From a virus (lineage: Duplodnaviria > Caudoviricetes), in the IMG/VR virus record IMGVR_UViG_3300049009_000874, positions 32,001 through 96,000 of that record: a stretch of 64,000 nucleotides of DNA; one strand, given 5' to 3'. The notes beneath the pieces were generated by a model, which saw nothing but the letters and a program-made list of their open reading frames with translations, did no database searches and was not told where the DNA came from. Shown here piece after piece: positions 3,837 through 27,793 of this stretch; the first letter of the stretch is position 1; the number at the start of each line of letters is the position of its first letter. Position numbers and translations under genes: made by a program.

Positions 3837-5051
3837 GTGCCACGACGCATAGAAGAGGACCATAAGGACTTTATAGATGTCGTCTCGGGGAGACTCAGGA
3901 AAGCCCTGAAGAAATTCATAAAGTCAGGCAAGATAGTAAGATCCCGCGGGAAGCGCGGAAAGATATCAATCACCATCCCGAAGATAGACATACCCCAGAT
4001 ACTTTATGGTGACAACGGCACGGGAACCGGTCGCGGTCAGGGCAAGGACGGCGACGTGATAGACAAGGGCAAGAAGGACAAGGGCAAGGGCAACGGCGCC
4101 GGGCAGGATGAGGGCGAGGGCATAACGGTCAGCCTCGACCTCGACGACGTCCTCAAGTTCATGCAGTCCGAGCTGGAGCTCCCGAACCTCAAGCCCAAGG
4201 TCAACGACACTTTCGACGACATCAAGATCAAGTACAACAACATATCGATGGTCGGTCCGGAGTCCCTGCGCAACAACAAGAGGACTTTCCTCGAGGCTCT
4301 CAAGAGGCAGTCCGCCGACGGCAGCATCGACAAGCTCGAGATGGTGCCCGGTATCAAGGTCCCGATCAAGATGGTCAAGCCGATCAAGAGGGACAAGCGC
4401 TACAGGCAGTACAGGGAGATCAAGATACCGTCCAGCAACGCCCTCATCGTCTACGCCAGGGACGGTTCCGGGTCCATGGACCAGATGAAGTGCGAGATAG
4501 TATCCGACATGGCTTGGTGGATAGACGTCTGGATCAGGAAGTTCTACAAGCGCGTCGAGAGGCTCTTCGTCTGGCACGACTCCATAGCGATGGAGGTGGA
4601 CGAGGAGAAGTTCTACAACTACAGGTTCGGCGGCGGCACGACCTGCTCTTCCGCCCTCAAGTTCATAGCCAAGCAGTTCGAGAACCGGTACAACCCGCAC
4701 AAGTGGAACATATATGTCTTCTACTTCACGGACGGCGATAACTGGAGCGAAGACAACAAGGTGTTCATCGACACGCTCAGGGAGTCGTTCCCGGAGAATC
4801 TCGTCAACATGGTCGGGATAACCCAGATACTCCCGTGGAACTACACGAACAGCGTCAAGCACGTGGTCGACCAGGCTGTGCAGAGCGGCGACGTCGACAG
4901 AAGGAACGTCAGGACGGCGGAGATAGGCTCCAACGGCTCGGATTTCACGGAGGAGATGAGGAACGAGCAGATAATGGATGCGATAAAGACGCTGATGGGT
5001 TCTGACAGAAGTAAAATAAAGTTTCCCAAGGAGCTAGAGGATGGCGAGTAA
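3837..5051 (+). CDS. yeaH: YeaH/YhbH (DUF444) vWA-domain protein
   Basis: Gly-rich GQGKDGD linker, ELELPNLKPK, MIDAS-like DGSGSM / GGT / FTDGDN; follows prkA. Confidence 0.93.
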   Translation: MPRRIEEDHKDFIDVVSGRLRKALKKFIKSGKIVRSRGKRGKISITIPKIDIPQILYGDNGTGTGRGQGKDGDVIDKGKKDKGKGNGAGQDEGEGITVSLDLDDVLKFMQSELELPNLKPKVNDTFDDIKIKYNNISMVGPESLRNNKRTFLEALKRQSADGSIDKLEMVPGIKVPIKMVKPIKRDKRYRQYREIKIPSSNALIVYARDGSGSMDQMKCEIVSDMAWWIDVWIRKFYKRVERLFVWHDSIAMEVDEEKFYNYRFGGGTTCSSALKFIAKQFENRYNPHKWNIYVFYFTDGDNWSEDNKVFIDTLRESFPENLVNMVGITQILPWNYTNSVKHVVDQAVQSGDVDRRNVRTAEIGSNGSDFTEEMRNEQIMDAIKTLMGSDRSKIKFPKELEDGE

Positions 5052-6618
5052 GTTTTTCCACGGATCTTCGCTTCTCATAGGCAACAACACCATACCGGGC
5101 GTTCAGCTCCCGAAGGATCTGCGGGATTTCGCGCAGAAGATACTGTACGCGTGCAAGGACTGGGGTCTCGACTTCTATCCCACGGTCGTCCAGCTTCTGA
5201 CCTACGACGAGATATCCGAGGTCGCGGCGTACGGAGGCTTCCCTGTACGTTACCCCCACTGGTCTTTCGGGATGCAGTACGAGGAACTCCAGAGGGGATA
5301 TGAATTCGGAGCTCACAAAATATACGAAATGGTTATCAATGCCTCGCCCTGCTACATCTATTGCCTCGACAGCAACACGTTGCTGGATCACCTGACCGTC
5401 ATAGCCCATGCCACCGGGCACAACGACTTCTTCAAGAACAACATACACTTCTCGGCGACCGATACCAACATGCTCAACAACATGGCGAACCACGCCAGCC
5501 GCATAAAGAAGTACATGACGCGGTGGGGCAAGGAGAGGGTCACGGAGTTCCTCGATTACCTCCTCAGGATAGACACGCTCATAGACGGCGCGTCAGCCTG
5601 GCACCAGAAGGTCATCAAGGACCGCAACATAGCCGACAAGAGGGACTACAGGGTCCCGGTAAGGCTCAAGGTGGACAGCGACAGGTTCTACATGGACTCC
5701 TACATAAACACCAAGGACTTCAAGGTCCGCGAGGACGAGAAAGCCAAGGACAAGGACCTGGCTGACGAGCTAGGGTTCTTCGTCGAGCCGGTCAGGGACA
5801 TATTCGGGTTCCTCAGGGACAACGCGCCGCTCAAGCCGTGGCAGCAGGACATCATGTCCATGATCTACGAGGAGTCGATGTATTTCTACCCGCAGAGGCA
5901 GACCAAGGTATTGAACGAGGGGTGGGCTTCACTGACGGACCATGTCATCATGGCGGAGCAGGGCTACGTTTCCCTCGGTCAGAAGACGCACGACTCCGGC
6001 ATAATCGATTATGCCATACACAAGATGGGGGTGCTCGGCGGCAAGTACTCCACGAACCCCTACAAGCTTGGGTTCAACCTCCTCATGGACATAAAGAAGA
6101 GGTGGGACAAGGGGCAGTTCGGCACAGAGTGGGACAAGTGCACCAACTCCAGCACGAAGGAGAAGTGGGACACCAAGGCTATGCTCGGCAAGGAGAAGAT
6201 TTTCGAGGTGAGGAAATACTACGACGACCTCACCCTGATCCACGAGTTCTTCACCGACGACTTCTGCCGCGAGCAGGAGTATTTCGAGTACAAGAAGTAC
6301 CCGAACGGCGAGACCGTCCTCGAGAGCCACGACCACAAGAAGATAAAGAGGCATCTCATGGCTCGCCACGTCAACGGCGGGCTTCCCGACATAAGGCTGG
6401 CTGAGCCAAACTACAAGGGCAAGGGATACCTCATGCTCGAGCACCACCACGACGGGAGACCGCTGTACGACCCATACCTACGCGACGTCATGGTTGGTCT
6501 GAGGTTCATATGGCAGAACGACGTGTTCCTGTCGACCAAGGGGCACGACGGGAGCGACGTGGTGTACGAGTGTTTCGACTCGGACCCAGCCAACATCAAG
6601 GTCAAGGGCAAGAAATAG
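5041..6618 (+). CDS. spoVR: SpoVR/YcgB family protein
   Basis: GFPVRYPHWSFG, YEMVIN, AHATGHNDFFKNN, QTKVLNEGWAS, NPYKLG. Confidence 0.95.
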   Translation: MASKFFHGSSLLIGNNTIPGVQLPKDLRDFAQKILYACKDWGLDFYPTVVQLLTYDEISEVAAYGGFPVRYPHWSFGMQYEELQRGYEFGAHKIYEMVINASPCYIYCLDSNTLLDHLTVIAHATGHNDFFKNNIHFSATDTNMLNNMANHASRIKKYMTRWGKERVTEFLDYLLRIDTLIDGASAWHQKVIKDRNIADKRDYRVPVRLKVDSDRFYMDSYINTKDFKVREDEKAKDKDLADELGFFVEPVRDIFGFLRDNAPLKPWQQDIMSMIYEESMYFYPQRQTKVLNEGWASLTDHVIMAEQGYVSLGQKTHDSGIIDYAIHKMGVLGGKYSTNPYKLGFNLLMDIKKRWDKGQFGTEWDKCTNSSTKEKWDTKAMLGKEKIFEVRKYYDDLTLIHEFFTDDFCREQEYFEYKKYPNGETVLESHDHKKIKRHLMARHVNGGLPDIRLAEPNYKGKGYLMLEHHHDGRPLYDPYLRDVMVGLRFIWQNDVFLSTKGHDGSDVVYECFDSDPANIKVKGKK

Positions 6619-6855: not shown

Positions 6856-6928
6856 TCTTGTCAAAAGACGGCTTTTGATTTAGATTCTCCCTCATGTCTT
6901 TTCCAGGCGCGAGTAAGTGGGTTTCGCT

Positions 6929-8284
6929 ATGAAGGTTGAAATCGTCGGTTTCGAGCATTTGCATTTACACTCCGACTTCTCCGTCCTCGACGGGCTTGGA
7001 ACGTGCGAGGAGTACGCCCTCCGCGCCACCCAGATAAACCAGAACTTCCTCACCATCAGCGACCACGGAATGCTCGGCGCCGTACCGAGGCAGATACGAG
7101 CCTGCGACAAGGTCTGCGACAAGTTCGGCAAGGACAAGCTTTCCCCCATATTCGCCACCGAGCTTTACGTCAACAGGCTTCAGCCGCAGAGCAACTCGCT
7201 CGAGGACATGCAGAAGTTCTCTGGAGACCTTTCCCCCGAAGAGTTGCTGGAGCTCCGCCCAAGCCCCCACCTCCTCGCCATAGCGCACAATGAGATCGGC
7301 TACAAGAACCTCGTGAGGCTCACCAGCTGGGGCTGGACCAAGGGGTTCTACCGCAAGCCGAGGGTGAACTACGAGCAGCTCGAGAAGCACAAGGAGGGCT
7401 TGCTCTTCACGAGCTGCTGCTACAACAGCGAGATCGGGCGGGCGTTCGAGTCCGGCGGCGAGGAGGCTGCGCTCTCCATGATCGACAGGTATGTCGGGAT
7501 GTTCGGCAGGGAGAACTATTTCCTCGAGATAATGCTGCTTGATTTCGTGAAGCAGAAGCCCTACGACGCCTTCATAGTCAAGGCTCACCAGAAGACTGGT
7601 CTGAAGATAATCCTTTCGAACGACGTCCACTACTGCCGCAAGGAGGACAGCAAGCTGCAGCGTCTCATGCTGATGGTGCAGACCGGCAGGACGATACAGG
7701 ACATAGAGAAAGCCATGAAGGAGGACTCCATGCAGGACTTCTTCGAGCTGCAGGACAGCAACCTCTGGATGAAGTCGGAGGAGGAGATCAACGAGAAGTG
7801 GCTGAGCCACTACAGCGACGTCATCCCTTACGAGATATTCTGCGAAGCCAAGAAGAACACGGTCGAGATTTGCAGGAAGGCGAAAGGGGTGCAGCTGGAC
7901 AGGAGCCTGAAGCTTCCCGTCTTCCCGGACTGCGACGAGAGGCTCAAGGAATATGTCGTCATCGGGTTCAGGGGCAGGAATCTCCCTTCGACCAGGGAAT
8001 ACAGGGACAGGATCAAGGAGGAGCTCAGCCTTATCATAAGGAAGGGGTTCAGCACGTACTTCCTCATCCAGAAGATGATGACGGACGAGGCTAGGAAATG
8101 GTGCAGGGAGAACGTCGGCGGCGACGGGACCCAGGCTGTGGGTCCGGGGCGCGGATCCGCTTGCGGTTCGCTGGTGTGCTACTGTCTAGGGATAACGGAC
8201 GTCGACCCGGTCTACGAAGGTCTGCTGTTCAGCAGGTTCATGAGCGAAGCCCGCGGGGGAAGGTCTATCTGCTTCGATGCCTGA
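6929..8284 (+). CDS. dnaE: DNA polymerase III alpha, N-terminal polypeptide (PHP domain plus first part of palm/thumb)
   Basis: HLHLHSDFSVLDG, TISDHG, NDVHY, GPGRGSACGSLVCYCLGITDVDP, LLFSRF; stops before PDIDxD. Confidence 0.93.
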   Translation: MKVEIVGFEHLHLHSDFSVLDGLGTCEEYALRATQINQNFLTISDHGMLGAVPRQIRACDKVCDKFGKDKLSPIFATELYVNRLQPQSNSLEDMQKFSGDLSPEELLELRPSPHLLAIAHNEIGYKNLVRLTSWGWTKGFYRKPRVNYEQLEKHKEGLLFTSCCYNSEIGRAFESGGEEAALSMIDRYVGMFGRENYFLEIMLLDFVKQKPYDAFIVKAHQKTGLKIILSNDVHYCRKEDSKLQRLMLMVQTGRTIQDIEKAMKEDSMQDFFELQDSNLWMKSEEEINEKWLSHYSDVIPYEIFCEAKKNTVEICRKAKGVQLDRSLKLPVFPDCDERLKEYVVIGFRGRNLPSTREYRDRIKEELSLIIRKGFSTYFLIQKMMTDEARKWCRENVGGDGTQAVGPGRGSACGSLVCYCLGITDVDPVYEGLLFSRFMSEARGGRSICFDA

Positions 8285-9332
8285 CGTTTCTGGCATGGAG
8301 GTCTATGTCTCTCTCGACCATGTCCTTCACCAGCGAAGAGAAGTTCGTTTTCGGTTTCCACCCTAGGCTTTCCCTGGCTTTGCCGGACACCCCCCTCAGC
8401 GCGTCGATCTCTAGCGGCATATTGAGGGAACTGTCTATCTCGACCTTACCCTTCCATTCCCCGAGACCTGCGCAGACGAACGCCTGGCTCAGGAATTCCT
8501 CGACGGAATGGGTCTCGCCCGTCGATATCACGAAATCCTCAGGGTCGTCATTCTGGAGCATCATCCACATCGCCAGGCAGTAGTCCTCGGCGTGACCCCA
8601 GTCCCGCATAGACGATATGTTCCCTAGCTGAAGCTTGCCTTCGGACAATCCGTTCTTCTTCCTGCCGATCCAGCTCGTTATCTTCCTTGTCACGAAATCC
8701 TCGCCCCGCCGCGGGCTTTCGTGGTCGAACAGTATTCCCGAGCAGGCGAACATCCCGTGGGACTTGCGGTATATGCTTATGAGGTTGTGGGCAGCCAGCT
8801 TGGATACGGCGTAAGGGGAGTTCGGGGACATGCATGTCCGCTCGTCCTGGAAGGCTTCGAGGTCGAGGAACTCCTTCGGGTCGACCTTCCCGCTCCGTTC
8901 CGCCCTGTTGCCGTCCTTGTCGATGAACGAGAAGCACGACCCGAACATATCGCTCGTCGAAGCCTGGTAGACCCTGGAGCGCCAGGAATGGTTGACGACG
9001 GCTTCGATGAGGTAGAGAACCCCCTTGAGGTCAACGTCTATCGTGTAGGAGGGCTGGATGAAGGACTCTCCGACATGGCTCTGGGCAGCCAGGTTGTATA
9101 TCTCGTCCGGCTTGTGCTCCGAAACGACCTTCCGCACGAACAACGGGTCGCATATGTCCCCCTGCACCACCGAGAACCTCCTGTGCCCCAGCACGGTCTC
9201 CAGCCTGGACATGTTGTTCGAGGACGACCTCCTCGAGATGCCGGTCACCTCGTATCCCTTGCCCAGGAGGATCTCCGAAAGGTAAGATCCGTCCTGTCCT
9301 GTGACTCCGAAAACCATGGCTGTTTTTGACAT
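8265..9332 (-). CDS. gmd: GDP-mannose 4,6-dehydratase
   Basis: GVTGQDGSYL, YNLAAQSHV, SPYAVSK, HESPRRGEDFVTRKIT, RDWGHAEDY. Confidence 0.96.
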   Translation of the reverse strand: MSKTAMVFGVTGQDGSYLSEILLGKGYEVTGISRRSSSNNMSRLETVLGHRRFSVVQGDICDPLFVRKVVSEHKPDEIYNLAAQSHVGESFIQPSYTIDVDLKGVLYLIEAVVNHSWRSRVYQASTSDMFGSCFSFIDKDGNRAERSGKVDPKEFLDLEAFQDERTCMSPNSPYAVSKLAAHNLISIYRKSHGMFACSGILFDHESPRRGEDFVTRKITSWIGRKKNGLSEGKLQLGNISSMRDWGHAEDYCLAMWMMLQNDDPEDFVISTGETHSVEEFLSQAFVCAGLGEWKGKVEIDSSLNMPLEIDALRGVSGKARESLGWKPKTNFSSLVKDMVERDIDLHARNVRHRSR

Positions 9333-9419: not shown

Positions 9420-9839
9420 ATGGAAACTACAATCACCGTAGATCTCGGCACGATGCCGGATCTAATCTACATGATCATCAAGGACGAAACTTTATTCGCT
9501 GAATTGAAGGCGGAATTTCCAGATATTCTTGCCGACCTGACAACACTGAAGACCAACCCGAACTGCTCATGCAGGGGCAAGGTTGGCAAGTTCTTCTCCG
9601 ACAAAGTGGCTACCGATCCGAACATCTTGGAGAAGTACTACAAGGACAAGGCTGCGATAGTCAAGGAACTTGAAGCGATCAAGCTGAAAAGAGTCAACAA
9701 CGCAATCAACGGCAAAGTCTTCAAGGTGCAGCTCGGCGACGAGGCTTGGGCTAATTTCAACAAGACCATTGTTGGAAAAACCTTCAGAAGCTTCTCCGTT
9801 GTCCGAGAGTTCGACTACATGTGGGTATACTTCCTATGA
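9420..9839 (+). CDS. hypothetical protein (NPNCSC motif)
   Basis: 139-aa ORF divergent from gmd. Confidence 0.8.
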   Translation: METTITVDLGTMPDLIYMIIKDETLFAELKAEFPDILADLTTLKTNPNCSCRGKVGKFFSDKVATDPNILEKYYKDKAAIVKELEAIKLKRVNNAINGKVFKVQLGDEAWANFNKTIVGKTFRSFSVVREFDYMWVYFL

Positions 9840-10129
9840 TTGAGTCGTTTTTGATCTATCTGGTCGCGTGCCTTGGCGTCACCTACGCCTGGTCCGACAC
9901 CGATGTAGCGCGACCTTTCAGGAACCTGGTAGCCAGGATACCATATGTAAATGTCCCGATGCTCTGCCACGAGTGCAGCAGCTTCTGGTTCTCGTTGGGA
10001 ATCTCATTTCTGCTCAACCCGGTTGGCGAACTATGTGTTCCGTTTTCCGGGAATCTGATTTCCGCCTTTTGCGGCTTTTTCGCGAACCTGGTGTTCGTTC
10101 GAAACCGGTTGGTGGCATACAAGGAATAG
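9836..10129 (+). CDS. small membrane protein with CxxCxxxW motif (DUF1360-like)
   Basis: ATGA overlap; hydrophobic segments; CHECSSFW. Confidence 0.65.
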   Translation: MIESFLIYLVACLGVTYAWSDTDVARPFRNLVARIPYVNVPMLCHECSSFWFSLGISFLLNPVGELCVPFSGNLISAFCGFFANLVFVRNRLVAYKE

Positions 10130-10146
10130 GGATGACTTGAAATAGG

Positions 10147-10183
10147 GAAAAGGGCTGGCTTGATATTCAAGCCAGCCCTTTTC
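10147..10183. terminator. bidirectional intrinsic terminator
   Basis: Perfect 17-bp inverted repeat GAAAAGGGCTGGCTTGA-tat-TCAAGCCAGCCCTTTTC between convergent genes. Confidence 0.9.
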
Positions 10184-10187
10184 TCGT

Positions 10188-13100
10188 TTAGCAACCCTGA
10201 TCGTCATAGCCGTTGAAGAAGAACGTGTGGGTTGGAGGGTTTGGCGGCGAACCGGGATATGTGGCTGCCCTTGTGTGCGACAGCGTGCCCGAGCCGGCAT
10301 ATCCGCTGAGAGACACGGTTATAGAGGTTCCGACCGGAACATTTACGGCTCCAAACGAAATTGCGGACGACGAGTTGCTTATGGTGCCGCCCGGACCCCA
10401 GGATGTCGTGTAGCTCATCGATCTGGATCCCGGGGTAAGAGCGGAAGAGACGCAAGACGGGGAATTGTATGGATAAACGCAATCGCCGCCGCATCCGTAA
10501 GCCTGGAAGTAAATCTTGATCGTCAATGGCGGCAAGTTGCATGACCCTAAAATGCATTCTTCGCCCGGTTCGCAGTCGTTTCCGCATTCCCCGCAGTTTG
10601 CTTCGTCTGTCTGGAAGTACGAGCTGTCCCGGCAAGTCCCGGCGCAGCATGTTTGCCCCGCAGTGCAGGCGTTTCCGCATTCCCCGCAGTTTGCTTCGTC
10701 CGTCTCGAGGGAGCTGGTGGCGACGCATGAGCCGGCGCAACAAGTTTGTTCCGCGGTACAAGGTTGTCCGCAACCGCCGCAGTTTGCTTCGTCCGTCTGG
10801 AGGGAACTGGTGGCAATACATTCCCCGCAGCATGTTTCGCTTTCAGCGCAAACGATTCCGCAGTTCCCGCAGTTGGCTTCATCCGTCTCGAGGGAAATGG
10901 TGTCGATACATGACCCGGCGCAACATGTTTCCCCGGCGGCGCAAGGTTGTTCGCAACCGCCGCAGTCGGTTTCGGAGGTCTGGAAGTACGAGCTGTCCCG
11001 GCAAGTTCCGCCGCAACATTCCCCGCCAGCGCAAGGTTGTTCGCAGCCTCCGCAGTTGGCTTCGTCCGTATCGGTGTTCACGCACGACCCGCCGCAACAT
11101 GTTTCCCCGGCGTCACAAGCGATGCATAGCAGACCGCAGTTTGATTCGTCGGTATCCGTATCCTTGCAGTCTCCGCCACAGCAATGACCCGTAATGCATA
11201 CATTTCCGCAAGATCCGCAGTTACTATCGTCGTTCCCGTAGATGTCTTTGCATTCCCCTCCGCAACATTCCAAGTCTCCGGTGCATTTGTTCGGACATGA
11301 ACCGCAATGGTCCTTGTCGTTGTCGAGATTTTTGCAAGAGCCATCGCAGCATGTCTGTTCCGCGAGGCAAACATTCGGACATGTTCCGCAATGACCTTCA
11401 TCGTTCTTTGTGTCTACGCATGTATCGTTCGGAAAATCACCGCAACATGTAAGTCCGTCGGGGCATGAGCCGCCGCAAGGTGCGCATGTCGGGAAATGCT
11501 CGGATTCGTCTTCGTAAACAGATGGACAGCCACCATTGCAAAGCGTGCCCCCTGGGTGTTCATGATCGCAACAGGTATAGTTGCTTGGATTAGCCCCATA
11601 AGTTCCAAGAATGTCGTAGTTGCAACCTACTGCGTCGTGCCCCCATGGAGCCGTGCATTTATATTCCGAAGGGTTATCATAGTCAAGATACCTGCAACTT
11701 GCGCATGGTCCTTCTCCGGCGGAACAATATCCCACAGAAGGGCATGCATTTCCATGTGCCTCCGCAAAGGCTCCCGTGCATTCCGGGACATTGCAGGAGT
11801 CGTAGCATTCGCAACTGACGAGTTCCCATTGCAGGTTATTCACGTTCCCTATCGCCTTGTATTCGCAGCCTCCGAAGCATGTTTTTGCCGGCAGCGAGGG
11901 ATTTGGCGGCGGATCTGATGGAGGACATGCGTCATAGGTGCATGGTATGGTCGTTCGTTGACCCCAGAAGGTTGGCGCAGATCCCAACAAAAAAGCTTGT
12001 TGGGATTCTGTCGGAAGTTTGCATGTTCCGCACGGAACACACTCGCCATTCACGCATTTTGTCGTTGGAGGATCGCCCGACTCAGGGCATTCAGCACCAC
12101 TTTCCACTGCGTTGCATTTATTCCCGCAACCGCCGCAGTTGTCGTTGTCCGTATTTGGGTCTACGATAGTCGCGGTCGGTTTTGGTAGATCGCCATAAAT
12201 ATTTGGAGGACCCCACTTTGGGCAGCAAATATCAGTGCCAACAGTTCTAATCCCGCAACCGCCGCAGTTGTCGTTGTCCGTCAAAGTGTTAACGGGTTCC
12301 CCATCACAGCACTTTTGTTGCACTTGATCGGATGTATCCACAGCGTTCCCGCAACCGCCGCAGTTTTCGTCATCGGTGTTTGGGTCTACTTGAGTGGCTG
12401 TCGGTCTTGGTAGCTCGCCATAAATATCTAGTGGACCCCAATGTGGGCAGCAAATCTTAGGAGCTTCAACCCTAACGCCGCAGGCGCCGCAGTTGTCGTC
12501 GTCAGTCAAAGTGTTAACGGGTCCCCCATCACAGCACTTTTGTTGCACTTGATCGGATGTATCCACAGCGTTCCCGCAACCGCCGCAGTTTTCGTCATCG
12601 GTGTTTGGGTCTACTTGAGTGGCTGTCGGTCTTGGTAGCTCGCCATAAATATCTAGTGGACCCCAATGTGGGCAGCAAATCTTAGGAGCTTCAACCCTAA
12701 CGCCGCAGGCGCCGCAGTTGTCGTCGTCAGTCAAAAGGCTGACTGGTTCACCCTCACAGCATTTTTGTTGCACTTGATCGGATGTATCCACAACATTCCC
12801 GCAACCGCCGCAGTTCTTGTCATCGGTGTTTGGGTTTACTTGGGTTGCGGTTGGTGGTGGTGGATCGCCATATGCATCTGGAGGACCCACATGCGGGCAG
12901 CAAATCTTAGGCGCAAGAGCCCTAGTGCCGCAGGCACCGCAGTTGTCGTCGTCAGTCAAAAGGCTGACGATCTCACCATCACAGCATTTCTCTTTTACAT
13001 ATGGCGATGTGTCCGCGACATTCCCGCAACCGCCGCAGTTTTCGTCATCGGTATTCGTGTTGGTAATAAAGAAAGTTGATTCGTCTGGAGCGCCAGCAAT

Positions 13101-16100
13101 AACAACTGGTTTCGGACAGCAGGATGTCGGATCTGTTGGATTGTCTGGATCGGCTGTGTCTCCGCAACTCAAGCAATTTTCATTTGACCCTTTTGCCGTC
13201 GGAACCCCGTCGCAGCAAAGTTCTTCGGCTACTACTTCGCAATCGCCGCAATTTTCAAGATCACTAAGTACATCTATGCACGAGCCACCGCAGCATTTTG
13301 TTCCTTCTCCGCAAGCGTCGCCGCAATCGGAACAGTTGGTGTCTGTGCCGACGTCGGTGCATTCGTTTTCGCAACACATCTGTCCTTCCGTGCATGAGTT
13401 CGGACAGTCACCGCATGGATTGTCAATGCATGTTCCAGAACAGCATTTCTGTTCCGGATAGCACACTGGAGTTTGGCAAGACGTGCAACGTCCATTCCCG
13501 TCACAGTATTGATCCGCGGTGCAACATGCCTTGTTGTTCCCAGAGCCACAGCAAATCGTTCCGGCGTCGCAACACTCGCCGTTGCAGCAGGTCGTTCCGG
13601 GAACTGTACATTCGCATTCCACGCACCCGCCGCCTTCTCCGCAATAATCGGAATCCGCGCAGCACCCGTCATTGCAGCAAACCTTGCAGCATGTCGTTCC
13701 GCCTTCGCAGCATGTTTCGCCCTCGGCGCACGGAGAAGGGCATTCTGCGCAAACTCCATCTTTGCAAGCCTGTCCTTCAGCACAAGGGGCTGCATCACAA
13801 CTACCGCAATGGGCGGTGTCGGTCTGCATGTCAACGCATTGCGAATCACAACATGTCTTTCCGTTTGGGCAAGGATTTGGAACGCAAACGCTTCCGTCCC
13901 CGCTGCAACCGGCGGCGCAGTTCTCCGCCCCGATGTACTCTCCTATCTTCGCCTGGGTTTCAGCGTTGAACGATGCTTTTGGTATACAGTAGGTTGGCAT
14001 ATCTTGTCCTTCTATGTTATTTACACAAAAATATATATCTCCGACACACGCCAATTTATCGTCAACACATGACAATCTGTCGTCCGCGCAATACGTGTAG
14101 TCCGGTTCTTGTCCGCAAGTGCCATAAAAAGCAGAATACCCAGGCTCCTCGTGTAAAACCCAAGCACCTCCCACGGCATCAAAATAACAAGATCCATCAC
14201 AGCTTACTGTATTTCCAACGCATGAAGCCACGAAAGCGACATCGTTCGGTTCGGGTTGTGGAGGCATTCCCTGTTCGTATCCCTGACACTCACATTCTGG
14301 TTCCGCACAGTTTCCCAAGAAGCATTTCGGAACTGTAAATGTGTCGCCTGGAGGTTCTTGGCATGTCAATCCGCAGATCCCGCAGTTGTCGGGATCAGTT
14401 TTTAGGTTTCTGCAAACGCCATTGCAGCATTGCCACAGATTGATCTGGTTGATTCCTTGCGGACACTCTATTCCGCAGTCACCACAGTTGTACATGTCGT
14501 TGAGAGGGTTCTTGCAAACCCCACCGCAACATATAAATCCAGGAGCGCAAGCGTATCCGCAAGAGCCGCAGTTGCTCTCGTCAGACCATATGTCGATACA
14601 TGAATTGTTGCAGCAAGCGGTTCCAGCCGCAAGACATGGAGGGTTGCATGCCAAGCAAACTCCATTTACGCACGAGTGTCCTCCGACACATACGGTTCCG
14701 CAATTCCCGCAGTTGTTGTTGTCGGTGTTTCTGTTCACGCAATTGCCGTCGCAACAGGTGTTTCCGGCAGGACAGCAATTGCCGTTGCAGCATGTTTCGT
14801 TAATGCCACAAGGATGGTAGCAAGATCCACAATGGTTTACGGAAACATTTAAAGGTATGCATTCGTAATTGCAGCACTGAATGTTGAGGGCAGGATCGAA
14901 AGCGCATTGGAAGTTGCAACTTCCGCAATTAAATGTCGAGTCTTTTATGTTTTGGCATCCCCAGGCTGTTTCGTCATAACAACATGTTTCTCCTTCCGCA
15001 CAAACACTGCCGCAATATCGGCAATTGTTAGGATCGGTCCGTAAGTCTTTGCACTCGCCATCGCAGCATGTCTGTGGAGTCGTGCTTCCCGGACCGCTGC
15101 AAAATGTAACGCAATCTCCGCAAAAATCCGGGTCGTTGTAGATGTCCTTGCAAGTTGGTGTTCCATCGACGGTGCAGCAGCCGTCTTCTGTGCAGCATTC
15201 GCCGTTGCAGCAGAACCCCAGAGGAAATAGACACGGAATTCCGCAACCGCCGCAATTTGCGTTGTCGTCATTTGTGTTTTTGCACTCACCGCCACAGCAT
15301 TCTTGTCCTTCTCCGCATGCCGGGACGCAACTGGCGCATTCGTAGGTTACGACCTGACCATCGGTACCATCTGCCGTCGGCGCTTCTCCTGGACAGTTGC
15401 ATCCCTGTGGGCATGTCGCAGTCGCAGTCCATGATCCAGCCAACGCCCTTACTGTTCCGTTTTCATCCTCGTCTGTTGACAATGCGTGGAATGAGGGATA
15501 CATGCACACGCAGTTTTGAAAAGCAGTTTGTCCAGACAGGCAAACATCCGATGGCATTCCGGGAGCGACTTTTCCAGTACAACCAGCGGGGCAGTCATCG
15601 GGTGTAGTCCAGCTTCCAGTAAGAAAAACAGGATTCGAAGGGTCTTCTGGACAAGAAGGACTTGGCAACCAAGTCCAGTTAATTGTAACATTGCAATCTT
15701 CTGGAAGGCACTGACCACATGGTTCGAGAGCTTCAGGTGGAGACCATATTTTATATTCGGCACCAAGACATGTTGGGCGATCAGGAACTCCGATAGCTTC
15801 ATAATCAAAACAGCAAGTCGAATCTCCAGTTGAACAATTTTCTTCTGTTGGCACAAGACTAGTCAAGTAAAAACCCAACTGAGCATTTCCATTACTAGGA
15901 TCGTTAGCAAGGCAGGTGTAAGTTTTACAGCACCCAGTAGTAGTAGTACATGGCTCTGGACTCCATGTCAGGTAAAAAAAACCTGTAGATTCTGGGCTTC
16001 CATCGCAAGGTATATTTGGAGGGCTATCGACAGAGCAATCTGTAACTGACGGGTATTGCGATTGAAACACATACTCATTTTCAGTCGAACAGACATAACG

Positions 16101-16784
16101 GCTACAACATCCAGTAACGGTTTCTTCACCCCAAGTCCAAGAACAGTTGTTCAACGCGCAAGGGTCTTTGCAGACACCATTGTCGCATATTTTACCGGAC
16201 GCACATGGAACACCGCAACCACCGCAGTTCGATGTGTCGGAACCCATGACGTTCACGCAAGAACCGGAACAGCAGCTTTCCCCGGCAAGGCAAGTATTTC
16301 CGCAATAGCCGCAGTTCGCAACATCTGTCTGGAGTGATTCCGTGTCGATACAATCGCCGGTGCAGCATGTTTCCGAAGGTTCGCAAGCTATTGTGCAAGA
16401 ACTGCAATGGTCATGATCAGTTTGCAGATCCACGCAAACATTGTCACAGCATGTCTCTGATGGTTCGCATTGAACGCCACCACAGAGGCAGCAGGTGCCG
16501 GTGCATTCGACTTGAACGATACCTTCGCAGCACCCGATTAGGGTTTCATTCGATCCTTCGAAGTCAGGATCGCATGGAGGAGGATTTGTCGGCAATCCGG
16601 GCGGCGGAGAAGATGAGCATCCTTCCGGACAAGGAACAGTCAGAACCCACTGGACATTGTCAAGTGGTCCGCCACATTTTCTCGGGTCCCAAACTACAGC
16701 TTCATAAGAGGCAGAGTGTCCGCAACCTTTTTCGGCAAGTGCGAAAACTATATCCCAATTCTCCACCAGTTTTGGATCTATCAT
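10188..16784 (-). CDS. giant Cys-rich protein of STIG1-like repeats (2198 aa)
   Basis: Dozens of D-x2-NCG-x-CG-x2-C-x(4-5)-CC-x-G-x-C units; beta-rich non-repeat C-terminus. Confidence 0.85.
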   Translation of the reverse strand: MIDPKLVENWDIVFALAEKGCGHSASYEAVVWDPRKCGGPLDNVQWVLTVPCPEGCSSSPPPGLPTNPPPCDPDFEGSNETLIGCCEGIVQVECTGTCCLCGGVQCEPSETCCDNVCVDLQTDHDHCSSCTIACEPSETCCTGDCIDTESLQTDVANCGYCGNTCLAGESCCSGSCVNVMGSDTSNCGGCGVPCASGKICDNGVCKDPCALNNCSWTWGEETVTGCCSRYVCSTENEYVFQSQYPSVTDCSVDSPPNIPCDGSPESTGFFYLTWSPEPCTTTTGCCKTYTCLANDPSNGNAQLGFYLTSLVPTEENCSTGDSTCCFDYEAIGVPDRPTCLGAEYKIWSPPEALEPCGQCLPEDCNVTINWTWLPSPSCPEDPSNPVFLTGSWTTPDDCPAGCTGKVAPGMPSDVCLSGQTAFQNCVCMYPSFHALSTDEDENGTVRALAGSWTATATCPQGCNCPGEAPTADGTDGQVVTYECASCVPACGEGQECCGGECKNTNDDNANCGGCGIPCLFPLGFCCNGECCTEDGCCTVDGTPTCKDIYNDPDFCGDCVTFCSGPGSTTPQTCCDGECKDLRTDPNNCRYCGSVCAEGETCCYDETAWGCQNIKDSTFNCGSCNFQCAFDPALNIQCCNYECIPLNVSVNHCGSCYHPCGINETCCNGNCCPAGNTCCDGNCVNRNTDNNNCGNCGTVCVGGHSCVNGVCLACNPPCLAAGTACCNNSCIDIWSDESNCGSCGYACAPGFICCGGVCKNPLNDMYNCGDCGIECPQGINQINLWQCCNGVCRNLKTDPDNCGICGLTCQEPPGDTFTVPKCFLGNCAEPECECQGYEQGMPPQPEPNDVAFVASCVGNTVSCDGSCYFDAVGGAWVLHEEPGYSAFYGTCGQEPDYTYCADDRLSCVDDKLACVGDIYFCVNNIEGQDMPTYCIPKASFNAETQAKIGEYIGAENCAAGCSGDGSVCVPNPCPNGKTCCDSQCVDMQTDTAHCGSCDAAPCAEGQACKDGVCAECPSPCAEGETCCEGGTTCCKVCCNDGCCADSDYCGEGGGCVECECTVPGTTCCNGECCDAGTICCGSGNNKACCTADQYCDGNGRCTSCQTPVCYPEQKCCSGTCIDNPCGDCPNSCTEGQMCCENECTDVGTDTNCSDCGDACGEGTKCCGGSCIDVLSDLENCGDCEVVAEELCCDGVPTAKGSNENCLSCGDTADPDNPTDPTSCCPKPVVIAGAPDESTFFITNTNTDDENCGGCGNVADTSPYVKEKCCDGEIVSLLTDDDNCGACGTRALAPKICCPHVGPPDAYGDPPPPTATQVNPNTDDKNCGGCGNVVDTSDQVQQKCCEGEPVSLLTDDDNCGACGVRVEAPKICCPHWGPLDIYGELPRPTATQVDPNTDDENCGGCGNAVDTSDQVQQKCCDGGPVNTLTDDDNCGACGVRVEAPKICCPHWGPLDIYGELPRPTATQVDPNTDDENCGGCGNAVDTSDQVQQKCCDGEPVNTLTDNDNCGGCGIRTVGTDICCPKWGPPNIYGDLPKPTATIVDPNTDNDNCGGCGNKCNAVESGAECPESGDPPTTKCVNGECVPCGTCKLPTESQQAFLLGSAPTFWGQRTTIPCTYDACPPSDPPPNPSLPAKTCFGGCEYKAIGNVNNLQWELVSCECYDSCNVPECTGAFAEAHGNACPSVGYCSAGEGPCASCRYLDYDNPSEYKCTAPWGHDAVGCNYDILGTYGANPSNYTCCDHEHPGGTLCNGGCPSVYEDESEHFPTCAPCGGSCPDGLTCCGDFPNDTCVDTKNDEGHCGTCPNVCLAEQTCCDGSCKNLDNDKDHCGSCPNKCTGDLECCGGECKDIYGNDDSNCGSCGNVCITGHCCGGDCKDTDTDESNCGLLCIACDAGETCCGGSCVNTDTDEANCGGCEQPCAGGECCGGTCRDSSYFQTSETDCGGCEQPCAAGETCCAGSCIDTISLETDEANCGNCGIVCAESETCCGECIATSSLQTDEANCGGCGQPCTAEQTCCAGSCVATSSLETDEANCGECGNACTAGQTCCAGTCRDSSYFQTDEANCGECGNDCEPGEECILGSCNLPPLTIKIYFQAYGCGGDCVYPYNSPSCVSSALTPGSRSMSYTTSWGPGGTISNSSSAISFGAVNVPVGTSITVSLSGYAGSGTLSHTRAATYPGSPPNPPTHTFFFNGYDDQGC
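10576..11160. repeat. imperfect ~115-120-bp coding repeats (TDEANCGxC...TCCxGxC)
   Basis: Repeated ccgcagtttgcttcgtc and tggaagtacgagctgtcccggcaagt blocks. Confidence 0.8.
12121..13060. repeat. ~4 tandem copies of a 225-bp (75-aa) coding unit
   Basis: cc(a/c)tcacagc recurs at 12301, 12526, 12751 and 12976; the middle copies are nearly identical. Confidence 0.92.
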
Positions 16785-18064
16785 TTTGTTTCCACCTTTT
16801 CAGATGGAGTTATGTTCTGTACTTTTTGCGATGCCAATATTTGGTCTGGTATAACCTTGAATCTCAACTTGTGCGACTTGAAGATTTCAATCACTTCATC
16901 TTTTTTCCCTGGATCTATTTCCCTGTTCGAAACGATCTCTATGAAATCGTTTCCGCAATTCACCTGCCTTATCTCCGTCAGACCGGTTTCCATCAGCTTC
17001 TTCTTGTATTCGTTGATCGAATGCCCTTTTATGGCGAAGGGACGGTTCTCCAGGAACTTGAATTCCCTGTACAACCTTCCGCAAGAGCATCTCTGGTATT
17101 TATCGCCTATCTTGCACCTGTCTCCGTTCCAGAATTTGACGAAAGGACAAGCCAAGGAGAAGTAATCGGTCGACACGAGCCTTTCCTCGTTTTCGACACA
17201 CCAGGAGAGGTTATCCATCAAATGATAGTTCTTGTCCCTGCATGTAAAGAATGAGGAGCCACCATCCCAACATCTCATATGATCGCATATATGTGACACA
17301 TAGTTGTTGTCGAGAAGAAACTTAGAGTCTTCATCTAGAATTTTTTCATTACTATTACTTAACAAGTTGCACAGTTTCCCCTTATAGTTTTCCTTTTTGA
17401 TGTAAGAGCATATTTTTTTTATTTGCGGTCCGGGAGCGAATATCACATCCATTTTTTTTGCATTCAAATATTTGAGTAGATATTTTTGGAATACTTCTTC
17501 TTTTTCTTTTTGGAGTTTCGTGTTTGCGTAATGGACCATTGCGGTTCTTTTCGTTCCGTGGTGTTCCATGAAGTTCTTGCTTTTCGATGTGTTGCTTATG
17601 GGTCTTGGACCACTTCCGAACGAGGAGTTGAAAAAGTACATGATGTGTGGATTCTGTGGTATTTCGTATTCGTCTAGAATTAGGTCGTAGTGGTTTTCTC
17701 CTTCGATGAAATAAAGGAAAGGTTCCCATCGCAAGTACTCGAATCCCTCGCCGGTGGTGCTTCCGCTGCTTTTCATCGGCATGGATTCAGCTTCCAGGCA
17801 TTTCACGTACCACTTGCTTTTGTCTGCGAGATCCTTTTTCACAAAAAAAGGCAGGTCTTTCTTGTTCGCGTAAGCTTCGGAATGCCTCTCAGCCCAGGAC
17901 GATATGTTTCTTTTCAGTATGTCTATCGTCTCGGCGACGAGTTCCTCGTCGTGCAGGAGTAGGTCTTTGCATATTGGCTTGTAGTCGTAGGGAATTTGCG
18001 TGGAAGGATCGGCGAAGTTTTTCCACTTCTGGATGAACTGTTTTATTTCCTGTGTATTCCGCAT
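16781..18064 (-). CDS. CapK/PaaK (phenylacetate-CoA ligase)-like adenylate-forming enzyme
   Basis: P-loop-like SSGSTTGE; LVSTDYF..CPFVKFWNGD and RCSCGR...LENR resemble the PaaK/CapK C-terminal motifs. Confidence 0.75.
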   Translation of the reverse strand: MRNTQEIKQFIQKWKNFADPSTQIPYDYKPICKDLLLHDEELVAETIDILKRNISSWAERHSEAYANKKDLPFFVKKDLADKSKWYVKCLEAESMPMKSSGSTTGEGFEYLRWEPFLYFIEGENHYDLILDEYEIPQNPHIMYFFNSSFGSGPRPISNTSKSKNFMEHHGTKRTAMVHYANTKLQKEKEEVFQKYLLKYLNAKKMDVIFAPGPQIKKICSYIKKENYKGKLCNLLSNSNEKILDEDSKFLLDNNYVSHICDHMRCWDGGSSFFTCRDKNYHLMDNLSWCVENEERLVSTDYFSLACPFVKFWNGDRCKIGDKYQRCSCGRLYREFKFLENRPFAIKGHSINEYKKKLMETGLTEIRQVNCGNDFIEIVSNREIDPGKKDEVIEIFKSHKLRFKVIPDQILASQKVQNITPSEKVETK

Positions 18065-18735
18065 CCGTCCCTCAGAAAGAAATTAAGTGTTACCTTGTTG
18101 GTGTGACTCCATTTCACATCGGGAACCCATCTCGAGACTATGTCCCAGTCGTTGCACTTTTTAACGTAGCGCCAACCTCCGTGTTTTTCTATGAGGTATC
18201 TAGTGTGCATAATCTCAGAAGTATCTATATAACCAGCCTTTGGAATATCGTTGTGAATTCTCTCCCCGACAACTTTTTTGTTGGAATCGTAAAGTCTGGT
18301 TCCCGTGTAGCACATGTCGCTTTTCGTTTCGGTTATGGTTCTGTAGAGGGACTCTATGTGGTCCGGCTCATACCAGTTGTCGTCGTCCAGATAGGCTATG
18401 AGATCGTGCTTCGTGTTCATTATGGCGAAGTTCCTGGGAGCCCATCCTGCTCCGCTGTGGTTGACCGGGAGCGTGAAGAACTTGAACCTCTCGTCCTTGG
18501 AGCATATGTCCTCGAAATATTTCTGGGTGTATTTGCAGTTGTCGCATTCCAGGCATGTCCTTTCGAAATTGCTGAAAGTGCAGGCTTCGGAGCATCCGTC
18601 CTTGACGACGTAGCAGTCGAAGTTCTTGAATGTTTGTTTCAGAAGTGATTCCGTGCACCTTTCTAGCCACTCTGGGCTTGAGTGGTAGGTAGGCAGGCAT
18701 ATAAGAACTTTATCCAGACATCCATGTCTTGACAT
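18043..18735 (-). CDS. glycosyltransferase family 2
   Basis: ICLPTY, SLLKQTFKNFDCYVVKDG, PRNFAI, IAYLDDDNWY, CNDWD. Confidence 0.9.
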   Translation of the reverse strand: MSRHGCLDKVLICLPTYHSSPEWLERCTESLLKQTFKNFDCYVVKDGCSEACTFSNFERTCLECDNCKYTQKYFEDICSKDERFKFFTLPVNHSGAGWAPRNFAIMNTKHDLIAYLDDDNWYEPDHIESLYRTITETKSDMCYTGTRLYDSNKKVVGERIHNDIPKAGYIDTSEIMHTRYLIEKHGGWRYVKKCNDWDIVSRWVPDVKWSHTNKVTLNFFLRDGCGIHRK

Positions 18736-18782: not shown

Positions 18783-19781
18783 TTAGATTTCGTCAACAGG
18801 TCCGGGAACTGGTCCCATCTTTTTCAGCGCCTTGTGAGCGTGGTGGCGGTGGCGGTGTCCGCCGATCGATTTCGAAAGGGCTGAATCGCCTTCGCCATCT
18901 TCGCCGTCATGGTCCTCATCGCCTTCGCCGTCATGGTCCTCATCGCCTTCGCCGTCATGGTCCTCATCGCCTTCGCCATCTTCGTCGTTTTCCATGTCTT
19001 CATCGTCTTCATCTTCATGATCTTCATCGCCTTCGTCACCTTCCATGTCTTCATCGCCTTCATCTTCATGGTCTTCTTCACCTTCGCCTTCTTCGTCACC
19101 TTCCATGTCTTCATCCCCTTCACCTTCGCCGTCAATTTTGAACTCATCGTCTTCCTCTTCGCCATTGCTTGAGTCGCCATCCATATAGCCCATCTCGTTC
19201 ATCATTTTCTGGAATGTGTTGTTGACTTTTATCTCCTCGATGATGGCTTTGATGGTGTTCTCGTGCTTGCAGGCTTCCGACAAGAACGAATCTATGAGGT
19301 TGCTTCTTTTTAGTTCCATGACAAGCTGTGACATGTTCGCTTGCGACTTGGAGCATAGATGTACTGCTTCCTTGATCTGACCATAGGACATGTTGCTTGT
19401 TTCGTTTCGCATCCCGCTTATGAAGCTGGAATTGCTCATGTTCTTCGTGTTCCTCAGCCATTCGGACACGCTTGTGGTTTTCGGCCAAGTCGGAAGCTTC
19501 TCGTGTTCTGATGACTTAACGACGGTTTCTGGCTCGTAAACCAATTCCTTGTCTCCCATGTCCGCGAACCCATCAGATGACTTGTTTGGGTTTTTTGCCA
19601 TTTTGTTCGCCATATATGGCTTTGGAGCCATGTTCGATTTTGCCCCGCCAGCGTTCTTGTCCACTTCAGCCTTAGGTGGAGCGGACGAGCTTGGTCCCTT
19701 GTAATCCGGAACCATCTCGGTTGCTGGGGTTTTGATTTTTTTGTCGTGGGTCAAATATTCTTGAAAACTTCTGAATGCCAT
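18783..19781 (-). CDS. protein with capsid-targeting-like N-terminus, long acidic repeat tract and His-rich tail
   Basis: MAFRSFQEYL; (GDEDHDGE)n; GGHRHRHHAH. Confidence 0.8.
   Translation of the reverse strand: MAFRSFQEYLTHDKKIKTPATEMVPDYKGPSSSAPPKAEVDKNAGGAKSNMAPKPYMANKMAKNPNKSSDGFADMGDKELVYEPETVVKSSEHEKLPTWPKTTSVSEWLRNTKNMSNSSFISGMRNETSNMSYGQIKEAVHLCSKSQANMSQLVMELKRSNLIDSFLSEACKHENTIKAIIEEIKVNNTFQKMMNEMGYMDGDSSNGEEEDDEFKIDGEGEGDEDMEGDEEGEGEEDHEDEGDEDMEGDEGDEDHEDEDDEDMENDEDGEGDEDHDGEGDEDHDGEGDEDHDGEDGEGDSALSKSIGGHRHRHHAHKALKKMGPVPGPVDEI
18899..18977. repeat. 24-bp tandem repeat x3 within a larger degenerate acidic tract
   Basis: cttcgccgtcatggtcctcatcgc, three exact copies. Confidence 0.92.
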
Positions 19782-19935
19782 GATTGCTCCATAATAATTC
19801 TTGTTAGGATGACTAATCCTATATAGAAGGATTTCTTTTGAAAATAATTCCGTTTGGGTGTTGATTTTTTAAATTGTATCTGTTAAATTTCTCGATCTGT
19901 GCTTAAAGGATTTTTCACCCATGAAGGAGTTTGGC

Positions 19936-21093: not shown

Positions 21094-21144
21094 TATCTAT
21101 AGTAGCTTGATGGAATATTTCTCTTATTGGAAAAGGCAAAAGCC

Positions 21145-27575: not shown

Positions 27576-27664
27576 CAAGATACTCCGTTTGCATTTATTA
27601 TAACAAAATCGGAGTTGGAAAACTAGATATATGTGAACCAAGGTTACCAAAAGAAAGGACTCCA

Positions 27665-27793
27665 ATGCTTACTTGCATTTTTTGTTTCTTGGCTGGACTC
27701 GTAATCGGCTGGAATTTCCTGCCCCAACCAGCTTGGGTCAAAGATATAGTGGGAAAAATGTTCGGAAAAAACAACGGAGATACAAATGTCTAA
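27665..27793 (+). CDS. 42-aa membrane protein
   Basis: AAGGA RBS; MLTCIFCFLAGLVIGWNFLPQPAWVK. Confidence 0.7.
   Translation: MLTCIFCFLAGLVIGWNFLPQPAWVKDIVGKMFGKNNGDTNV

Follow-up and report, generated by a model that had tools for sequence, protein, structure and literature searches.

A 2198-residue Stig1-repeat protein encoded with a glycosyltransferase and a PaaK-fold ligase in a huge phage is a candidate virion fiber or adhesin

The STIG1 proteins of plants are short, secreted, and equipped with a signal peptide and a single cysteine-rich domain. Together with GRIM REAPER they are the founders of protein family (Pfam) PF04885, and very large bacterial proteins of the MXAN_6577-like type carry Stig1 units in multi-unit arrays. 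Stig1-type cysteine-knot arrays are otherwise known only in these secreted plant peptides and in uncharacterized bacterial surface giants; here we describe one in a virus, in a protein without an export route. The window analyzed (64,000 nucleotides, bases 32001-96000 of the 189,229-bp IMG/VR virus record IMGVR_UViG_3300049009_000874; coordinates are window positions unless another record is named) encodes a protein of 2198 residues, hereafter the giant, whose 329 cysteines raise the question of how it folds in the reducing cytoplasm and what role it has once outside the cell. Judging from its sequence and gene context, we give about an even chance to the reading that, in this freshwater huge phage, the giant is a tagged, enzyme-modified, and disulfide-stabilized virion fiber or adhesin whose distal half evolves rapidly.

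The giant is encoded by a single open reading frame (ORF) with an ATG start, the longest ORF of the 189-kb record, and cysteine makes up 15.0% of its residues (≈1 in 6.7), compared with 1.73% in the other 229 ORFs of the genome. The Pfam Stig1 profile matches at E 7e-89 and 292.9 bits (cut-off 24.1) over 20 stretches, and a genome-wide Stig1 search, in which the positive controls (G001 and G002) gave signals, places 17 separate matches within this frame. NCBIfam model NF041328 (MXAN_6577-like) scores 140.4 bits (cut-off 100) over nine stretches; it is a model of the "subfamily" type, and the match rests on the repeats only. Examination of the sequence reveals 28 D-x2-[NH]C[GRS]xC motifs, 21 copies of NCGxCG, 54 CC pairs, and 49 CxxC motifs, and the canonical unit comprises 28-34 residues with six cysteines in the order N-C-G-x-C-G-x2-C-x4-5-C-C-x-G-x-C, followed by an acidic turn. 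The protein is strongly acidic overall (net charge ≈-235), and histidine is scarce (22 of 2198 residues). Neither a signal peptide nor a transmembrane helix was found: by sequence inspection and hydropathy, the N terminus (MIDPKLVENWDIVFALAEKG) has no basic n-region or hydrophobic core, and the maximum 19-residue Kyte-Doolittle hydropathy across the whole protein is 1.38.

A preliminary description, made from the sequence alone, had recognized a 2198-aa cysteine-repeat ORF in a phage-like genome, with dozens of NCGxCG-type units, about one residue in six being cysteine, no evident signal peptide or transmembrane helix, and a pattern typical of plant STIG1 and myxobacterial proteins. The composition and hydropathy above agree with it, as do the origin of the sequence in a virus record and matches elsewhere in the genome to PHROG families of phage DnaE, helicases, and HNH proteins; the HMMER comparison with Pfam Stig1 that it proposed is the search reported here, and both PF04885 and NF041328 score above their cut-offs.

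The giant shares its repeat cysteine pattern with plant STIG1 and GRIM REAPER, but it is viral, far longer, and composed of tens of units with additional orphan domains. Its size, these extra domains, and the absence of a signal peptide lead us not to place it functionally in the plant STIG1 family; its architecture, three Stig1 repeat blocks and four non-Stig1 regions, is not of the small single-domain type. With the bacterial Stig1 giants it shares multi-unit arrays in a very large protein. The bacterial hits (1200-3000 aa) are 28-41% identical to it over single repeat blocks and cover ≈15% of the phage protein. All non-phage relatives found are of the secreted or surface, Myxococcota type; unlike the giant, they have lipoprotein or Sec signals (P0009, for example, starts with a lipoprotein signal) and surface domains such as S8 peptidase, FGE-sulfatase, and FG-GAP, and they lack the phage protein's N-terminal tag, central domain, and end domain. 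With the low-complexity filter on, searches of GenBank phages with the giant (tblastn) and with window positions 1-25000 (megablast) returned no match, and a full-text literature search for Stig1 with phage or Myxococcus returned nothing relevant and no paper joining Stig1 repeats to phages. By these sequence comparisons, the giant belongs to no described phage protein family.

Within related phages, the gene is well maintained. A word-indexed search recovered seven close relatives of the giant (49-57% identity, 1365-2134 aa), below which there is only repeat-level similarity to Myxococcota-type proteins. At least 10 homologs of 1365-2654 aa occupy the same position in related phage contigs, where the relatives share the order 332-aa gene, glycosyltransferase family 2 (GT2) gene, ligase gene, and giant between two halves of dnaE; the giants in related contigs and IMG/VR loci measure 1438, 1454, 2098, 2134, and 2654 aa. 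In an alignment of eight sequences, residues 1-1140 are well conserved, and the C-terminal half varies in length and content. Comparison with the closest relative, L056 (94% nucleotide identity), gives dN/dS values of 0.33 and 0.29 for the two halves of the giant, against 0.015-0.165 for eight neighboring genes; protein identity is 88% for the giant and 95.5-99.6% for the neighbors, and 314 of the 317 aligned cysteines are kept. The giant gene is functional and changes more quickly than the genes around it, while the cysteine scaffold stays fixed.

We considered and rejected the L056 giant as a pseudogene (it appears as a 1050-aa gene call), the break being a 100-N scaffold gap. Four freshwater, estuary, and lake metagenomes, one of which may have yielded this DNA, contain contigs that are long over the flanks and fall into short pieces with skip or replace joints inside the giant gene; this fits repeat polymorphism, but at 85% likeness the pieces may equally be other strains or repeat mis-joins, and we have not used them as evidence. 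A Stig1 search of seven further ligase-bearing huge phages (G004-G010) detected no such domain, while its positive controls gave signals.

The giant is the last of four co-oriented genes, after those for the 332-aa protein, a GT2 enzyme, and an adenylate-forming ligase of the PaaK fold. The GT2 gene, whose LDDDNW motif is invariant in the alignment, overlaps the ligase gene by 22 nt, and the ligase stop codon in turn overlaps the giant's start (ATGA), with a ribosome-binding site, AAGGTGGA, 8 nt before the ATG; the GT2 and ligase genes are thus translationally coupled to the giant. The ligase matched no Pfam or NCBIfam model, and phmmer against PDB sequences returned nothing. Its AlphaFold2 (AF2) model is confident (predicted local distance difference test, pLDDT, 85.9) and shows the two-domain ANL fold over its full length. 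The top Foldseek matches in the PDB are the BT_0428 acyl-CoA ligase (4r1m; E 4.8e-15, listed as 5e-15, TM-score 0.57, 442 columns), PaaK1 (2y27; E 1.7e-12), NatL2, AjiA1, and ClxA, and a profile of the ligase alignment reaches ClxA (9s3l) at E 0.011. In the 24-sequence alignment, the TSGSTTGxPF loop and a CxCGR motif stand out, with S100 nearly invariant and G101 invariant.

The first gene product of the operon matched no Pfam or PHROG family, and orthologs occupy the same position in L003, L004, L007, L008, L056, and L057. Upstream of it lies a TATATA element, 31 copies of which occur in the 189 kb, nearly all in the 120 nt that precede an ORF (27 such placements); the form C[CT]TATATA is kept before the orthologous first gene in the same six relatives. 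This distribution suggests that the element acts as a promoter, making TATATA a candidate phage-specific promoter class, and expression of the operon is probably late. A further example of the element lies in the 42184-42190 region. Several of the ORFs that follow TATATA elements share a similar aromatic N terminus (MEFKSFLEY, MKFIEWLRIDE, MAFRSFQEYL, and MRAYSFHEFF).

Directly 3' of the giant's stop codon is a hairpin that, with its T-run, is kept in six of seven genomes (the window and five of six relatives) with compensating sequence differences; a consensus scan did not list it. It could be a two-way terminator shared with a convergent small gene (9821-10129(+)). Beyond it lies a GDP-mannose 4,6-dehydratase (GMD)-like gene that scores 341 bits against TIGR01472, below the cut-off of 415, and that occurs only in the window phage and L056, being absent at this place from L003, L004, L005, L007, L008, L009, and L057. 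Its product might supply a sugar donor. Two small genes nearby, 9420-9839(+) (139 aa) and the convergent gene already mentioned, whose 102-aa product is a membrane protein of about three hydrophobic helices, share 87-96% identity with their counterparts in close relatives. In the more distant huge phages L017, L020-L028, and L033, both follow the ligase gene in the same orientation, suggesting an older trio of ligase, 139-aa protein, and membrane protein.

The ligase belongs to a large family, with 33 IMG/VR loci plus 279 protein clusters that pass the search threshold (E ≤ 0.001); every member is metagenomic, and they lie largely on contigs of huge-phage size. In the subclade with a GT2 gene ahead of the ligase, the identity of the next gene downstream changes between phages, so that the giant fills what we term a slot. 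The L010 occupant (1678 aa) has five Laminin_G_3 lectin domains and hits PHROG families (lowest E 1e-75) that bear the names baseplate wedge subunit, virion structural protein, and tail fiber, matches that rest on the LamG repeats and on names given by homology; the next gene encodes a collagen-repeat tail fiber (E 8e-151). Other slots hold a 1616-aa protein with 8.4% cysteine and DUF285 and PKD domains (L014), proteins of 811 aa with 8.1% cysteine (L013) and 1084 aa with 11.2% cysteine (L059), short cysteine-rich proteins (L015 and L027), and a Thr-Pro, mucin-like repeat protein cut by the locus end (L011). Cysteine richness thus recurs in unrelated slot proteins, which fits products that must survive outside the cell.

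These proteins are linked by a short N-terminal tag, [DNEG][IV][LVI]F[ASV][LM]x[DEK]K, located at about residues 7-25 in all Stig1 giants and in the slot proteins listed except those of L010 and L059, which carry a related second variant, M[KR]LG...ExAC[QE]ECP. M1 and F14 are invariant in the tag alignment, and L16 and K19 nearly so. The shorter pattern [DNEG][IV][LVI]F[ASV][LM] occurs within the first 45 residues of 12 of the 756 ORFs in the fetched loci, and all 12 lie directly after the ligase gene, a specificity somewhat inflated because the pattern was derived after seeing these proteins. In the genome studied here, it occurs once in 59,049 translated residues, in the giant. On this pattern evidence, the positional exclusivity of the tag appears striking, and every locus that has a tagged slot protein also has the GT2 gene. 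Further ties of the ligase to glycan chemistry come from L016:9974-12253, where a 760-aa protein joins a ligase homolog to a GT9 heptosyltransferase domain and the next gene, of 464 aa, has an N terminus like that of HldE, the bifunctional heptose kinase/adenylyltransferase (the IMG/VR class of this locus is provirus), and from sugar dehydratase or epimerase genes near the ligase in L058, L059, and other loci. A 363-kb relative has an IS605 OrfB/TnpB (Cas12f-like) gene inserted next to its GT2-ligase module (L059:7030-8229).

Table 1. Location of the giant, its regions, and the associated elements and genes in the window
Feature	Coordinates	Strand	Basis
Giant Stig1-repeat protein, 2198 aa	10188..16784 (incl. 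stop codon)	-	ORF call, Pfam/NCBIfam profiles
N-terminal tag, aa 1-25; core DIVFALAEK, aa 11-19	16710..16784	-	Alignment, pattern search
Stig1 repeat block 1, aa 95-210, 21% Cys	16155..16502	-	Composition, profile
Aromatic-rich non-repeat region with Cys, aa 211-500, variable among homologs	15285..16154	-	Alignment
Stig1 repeat block 2, aa 501-825, 20% Cys; best Pfam stretch 720-777	14310..15284	-	
Conserved orphan central domain, non-Stig1, aa 826-976	13857..14309	-	Alignment
CC-rich Cys block, aa 977-1240, 21% Cys; closes the well-conserved N-terminal half	13065..13856	-	
Tandem array, 4.1 copies of a 75-aa (225-bp) unit	12075..13064	-	Tandem Repeats Finder (TRF)
Second non-repeat, Cys-containing region, aa 1571-1780	11445..12074	-	
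Stig1 repeat block 3, aa 1781-2090, with 93- and 183-bp tandem repeats	10515..11444	-	
C-terminal beta-sandwich domain, aa 2091-2198, 4 Cys	10191..10514	-	AF2 model
TATATA promoter-like element, 44 nt upstream of first operon gene	19820..19825	-	Sequence CTATATAGG
First operon gene, 332 aa, starts MAFRSFQEYL; strongly acidic Asp/Glu/His repeat region, basic His-rich end	18783..19781	-	
GT2-family glycosyltransferase, 230 aa, DDD motif and Cys cluster	18043..18735	-	Pfam PF00535, E 8e-20
PaaK-fold adenylate-forming ligase, 427 aa	16781..18064	-	AF2, Foldseek
GC-rich 12-bp hairpin between A and T runs, immediately 3' of the giant's stop	10152..10178	.	
GDP-mannose 4,6-dehydratase-like gene, beyond the hairpin	8265..9332	-	Pfam PF16363, E 3e-105

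The regions of the giant differ in how widely they are kept. The aromatic-rich region is 37-76% identical, over partial matches, to relatives found by tblastn, and the central domain, with many invariant columns in eight homologs, reaches 66-88% identity. A search of the central domain against 1.84 billion representatives matched only fragments of the same family; matches to DUF7507/PKD repeats reflect biased composition and were judged spurious. Each 75-aa unit of the tandem array consists of two reduced 4-Cys modules and a Pro/Thr linker (PRPTATQVDPNT), and TRF reports 12120-13052 with a period of 225 and 87% matches; 4.1 copies of a 225-bp unit at this identity point to a recent expansion. 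The second non-repeat region is present only in long homologs (57-61% identity). At the C terminus, where the preliminary description had noted about 110 beta-rich residues, the AF2 model indeed shows an eight-stranded beta-sandwich (block pLDDT 58-84). Fold matches are to generic Ig/C2/CnaB-like sandwiches (best Z 5.5), a fold search in BFVD returned nothing, and a sequence search recovered the L056 homolog alone; because the fold matches are generic, no specific tip function can be named. This domain is present in the window protein, L056 (P0053), L003, L057, and L007 and absent from P0004-P0008, which end in cysteine repeats.

The distribution of cysteines bears on the chemistry of the modules. 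Each unit contains 6, 4, or 10 cysteines, always an even number, and all eight 4-Cys units of the 75-aa array have lost the same two, the third and the sixth, the pattern expected if these two form a bond. We favor disulfides because of the even counts, the paired loss, the rarity of histidine, and the secreted or surface relatives, and the Stig1 modules are thus probably disulfide knots rather than metal sites. As the giant has no signal peptide or transmembrane helix, an oxidizing milieu would be reachable via lysis only. Thioredoxin-fold genes (PF00085) are present at 50397-50600(+) (E 3e-6), at G000:4780-5016(+) (E 8e-12), and in related phages, with no link to the giant established.

The genome is that of a huge phage. 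CheckV estimates the 189,229-bp record as 39% complete, implying a genome of several hundred kb, and sequencing runs containing the stretch derive from 11 studies of freshwater, lake, and estuary metagenomes. The nearest GenBank record is the 595-kb uncultured phage LR756511.1, with PrkA 66% and DnaE 49% identical. Neighbors of the giant's operon in the window include a PrkA/DUF444/SpoVR trio and DnaE; helicase, DnaB, and HNH genes lie elsewhere on the record. The dnaE gene is split into 6917-8284(+) and 21127-23883(+), 12.8 kb apart and with no intein halves, and the Stig1 operon, the GMD-like gene, and several small genes lie in between. Both the split and the gene order are kept in L003, L004, L007, L008, L056, and L057; LR756511.1 has one intact DnaE of 1179 aa (L006:10839-14378), and L017 also has a separate N-terminal half.

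Several other features of these genomes deserve mention. SpoVR carries one or two intein/LAGLIDADG insertions (922-1369 aa) at L003:20087-22987, L004:17265-21374, L056:16723-19512, and L057:12167-14935, the window SpoVR (5041-6618) is intein-free at 525 aa, and the 1338-aa DnaE C-terminal half of L056 gives a faint intein signal. A second Stig1 protein of the same phage, outside the window (L043:17583-19073; G000:131583-133073), is 496 residues long and joins seven propeller repeats of the RCC1 type (E 2e-76) to a single Stig1 unit at its C terminus (E 1.7e-7). The start of G002 encodes a likely homolog, and the bacterial hits P0031 and P0049 also combine RCC1 and Stig1. A 361-aa ORF at 26580-27665(-) has a weak GT2 match (E 2.5e-4, under the cut-off) and is translationally coupled to an unassigned 569-aa ORF (24887-26596); the pair may be a second glycosyltransferase locus.

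How the giant might work can be pictured as follows. Lacking an export signal, it would be synthesized in the cytoplasm as the final product of the four-gene operon. The ≈20-residue tag and the conserved proximal half of ≈1140 residues would form a handle that binds the co-encoded GT2 enzyme and PaaK-fold ligase, a site on the virion, or both, and the distal half, with its expandable Stig1 modules, Pro/Thr linkers, and optional beta-sandwich end, would be the exposed binding part. The Stig1 modules may be small knots of two or three disulfides each that become fully cross-linked on meeting oxidizing water at lysis, and the outcome would be a strongly acidic thread that resists protease and shear. 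The layout is fiber-like because the tag and N-terminal half are constant, the C-terminal half is of variable length, not every homolog has the end domain, and the 225-bp expansion is recent. Its operon partners (GT2, the PaaK-fold ligase, and the nearby GMD-like gene) and the shared tag make enzymatic modification part of the likely mechanism, in which both enzymes would act on the giant and the giant would be attached to the virion. The preliminary description had proposed a virion fiber or decoration with a tip domain. The fiber gains indirect support from the conserved N-terminal 1140 residues and tag, the variable, repeat-expanding distal half, and slot proteins that match virion and baseplate PHROGs; the tip is not a constant feature, being present in five long homologs and missing from five shorter ones.

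A number of observations weigh against this picture. No capsid, portal, or tail gene was recognized on the 189-kb record, and the giant's operon sits among replication genes, between the two halves of the split dnaE. The giant itself matched no PHROG family, no PDB sequence (phmmer), and, in BFVD predicted viral structures, nothing below E 0.07. A trimeric build is usual for phage fibers, and nothing in the giant points to it; the repeat part of its AF2 model has pLDDT of about 50-60, and at this low confidence the module fold and the rod shape are tentative. The homology-derived names of the L010 matches and the inflated specificity of the tag pattern, both described above, count here as well. 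Among possible oxidation factors, no Erv1/ALR sulfhydryl oxidase was found in five related records, a search in which the control genomes were silent too and which is therefore uninformative, and the only thioredoxin-fold genes found are ordinary ones, common in phages.

The position of the gene, outside any recognizable structural module, would suit a protein that never becomes part of the particle: the giant could be freed at lysis, or placed on the infected cell by a tag-dependent route, as a glycosylated adhesive or matrix material that might, for example, serve aggregation of cells or debris, receptor masking, or superinfection block. Phage GT2 and GMD genes are often involved in host-surface conversion, the PHROG matches of this GT2 are "moron" glycosyltransferases that include GtrB-like enzymes of O-antigen conversion, and a conserved tag could be recognized by something other than a virion. 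Many huge phages also have the ligase but no GT2 or tagged protein with it; there it lies next to the small membrane protein (o102) and its neighbor (o139). However, the giant has no known export signal, and 2198 residues are very costly if the particle gains nothing; the slot analogs match virion and tail families and adjoin a collagen-like tail fiber, and fast distal evolution with fixed cysteines is usual for receptor-facing virion proteins. We consider such a non-virion role unlikely. A cysteine content of 15% in a product of the reducing cytoplasm without an export signal, together with the many CxxC and CC motifs and the high negative charge, could instead indicate an intracellular metal or redox protein, a giant metallothionein-like sponge free of disulfides whose cysteines bind Zn, Cu, or Fe or buffer thiols; one distant Stig1 relative, P0010, also has a copper-binding MopE domain (PF11617). 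This is improbable in our judgment, since every non-phage relative found is of secreted or surface type, histidine is scarce, and cysteines are lost pairwise with an even count per module, and since large conserved non-Cys domains, a beta-sandwich end, and Pro/Thr linkers are ill-suited to a sponge. The slot also accommodates lectin, PKD, and mucin-like proteins that lack cysteine richness.

Packaging in the head and injection into the host is a further conceivable fate, in which the N terminus with its [LI]-x-E sites would be a capsid-targeting signal cleaved by a protease. Two such sites fall within the first 18 residues of the giant (LVE, aa 6-8; LAE, aa 16-18), and the MAFRSFQEYL start of the first operon gene resembles the N termini of several other TATATA-following genes, but the giant's DIVFAL tag does not resemble that set and is confined to the post-ligase slot. 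With a disulfide-type, repeat-variable protein whose slot analogs have lectin and PKD domains, quite unlike known internal head proteins, and with the implausibility of threading a cross-linked chain of 2198 residues through the tail, we think this fate very improbable. There is, lastly, only a slight chance that the gene is a recent non-functional insert, a possibility that the preliminary description had itself raised, or runaway repeat DNA left open by chance. Relative to LR756511.1, with its intact 1179-aa DnaE, the whole cassette is indeed an insertion between the dnaE halves, and the seven other ligase-bearing huge phages have no Stig1 domain. Even so, the frame is open over 1365-2654 codons in at least 10 diverged lineages; dN/dS is about 0.3, indicating purifying selection, and 99% of the cysteines are kept; the ribosome-binding site, start overlap, and terminator are conserved, and the apparent break in L056 is the scaffold gap. 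We therefore reject the insert reading because the gene is functional, even though its cassette is an insertion relative to LR756511.1.

Reading the giant as a modified virion fiber or adhesin invites comparison with several described systems. Its ligase resembles the PaaK-family AMP-forming ligases (PaaK1, BT_0428, NatL2, AjiA1, and ClxA) and CapK-type capsule enzymes in full-length fold (Foldseek E 5e-15 to 1e-12) and phosphate-loop motif, but it is only 10-14% identical to them, is covered by no Pfam or NCBIfam model, and belongs to a family seen in metagenomes only. In the AAH/AIDA-I and TibC/TibA pairs, a heptosyltransferase encoded beside a giant repeat adhesin modifies the adhesin in the cytoplasm. 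The L016 fusion of the phage ligase to a GT9 heptosyltransferase, beside an HldE-like gene, recalls this arrangement; in contrast, those adhesins are autotransporters with export signals, the phage enzyme is a GT2, and the window has no heptose pathway.

Virus-encoded glycosylation of virions is known for the capsid and tail of mycobacteriophages, chlorovirus PBCV-1, and the fibrils of Mimivirus, and chloroviruses also encode GMD. The locus described here likewise places glycosyltransferase and GMD-like genes beside a candidate structural substrate with Pro/Thr- or Ser-rich stretches. The mycobacteriophage case is mentioned in PMC11256854. Those systems are not known to include a PaaK-fold ligase, however, and their substrate is a capsid protein rather than a Cys-knot giant. 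A more speculative proposal, which we regard as doubtful, is that GT2, ligase, and tag form an undescribed cargo-decoration system, in which a leader-like tag of ≈20 residues would recruit the two enzymes, which would glycosylate, and also acylate or amidate, any adhesin in the slot, possibly on cysteine, and the modified protein would be mounted as swappable virion "hair". GT2-family S-glycosyltransferases of glycocins act on cysteine. If the proposal is correct, the giant would be the first phage structural protein of disulfide knots that folds without an export pathway, and the three-part module of sugar transferase, acyl-activating ligase, and tagged swappable adhesin would represent a novel means by which phages assemble and vary the surface that contacts the host.

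The closest morphological counterparts are the hairs of jumbo phages. Phage phAPEC6 has long, flexible "hairy" capsid and tail fibers, the proteins of which are unassigned and for which a role in host interaction was proposed (PMC7247149), and vB_PcaM_CBB likewise bears hairy or whisker fibers (PMC5259590). Those appendages were seen by electron microscopy without a gene, and the capsid fibers of phAPEC6 look trimeric, whereas the giant is known here from its gene alone, with no sequence relation to them shown; its gene is a candidate source of the unexplained hairs that very large phages bear.

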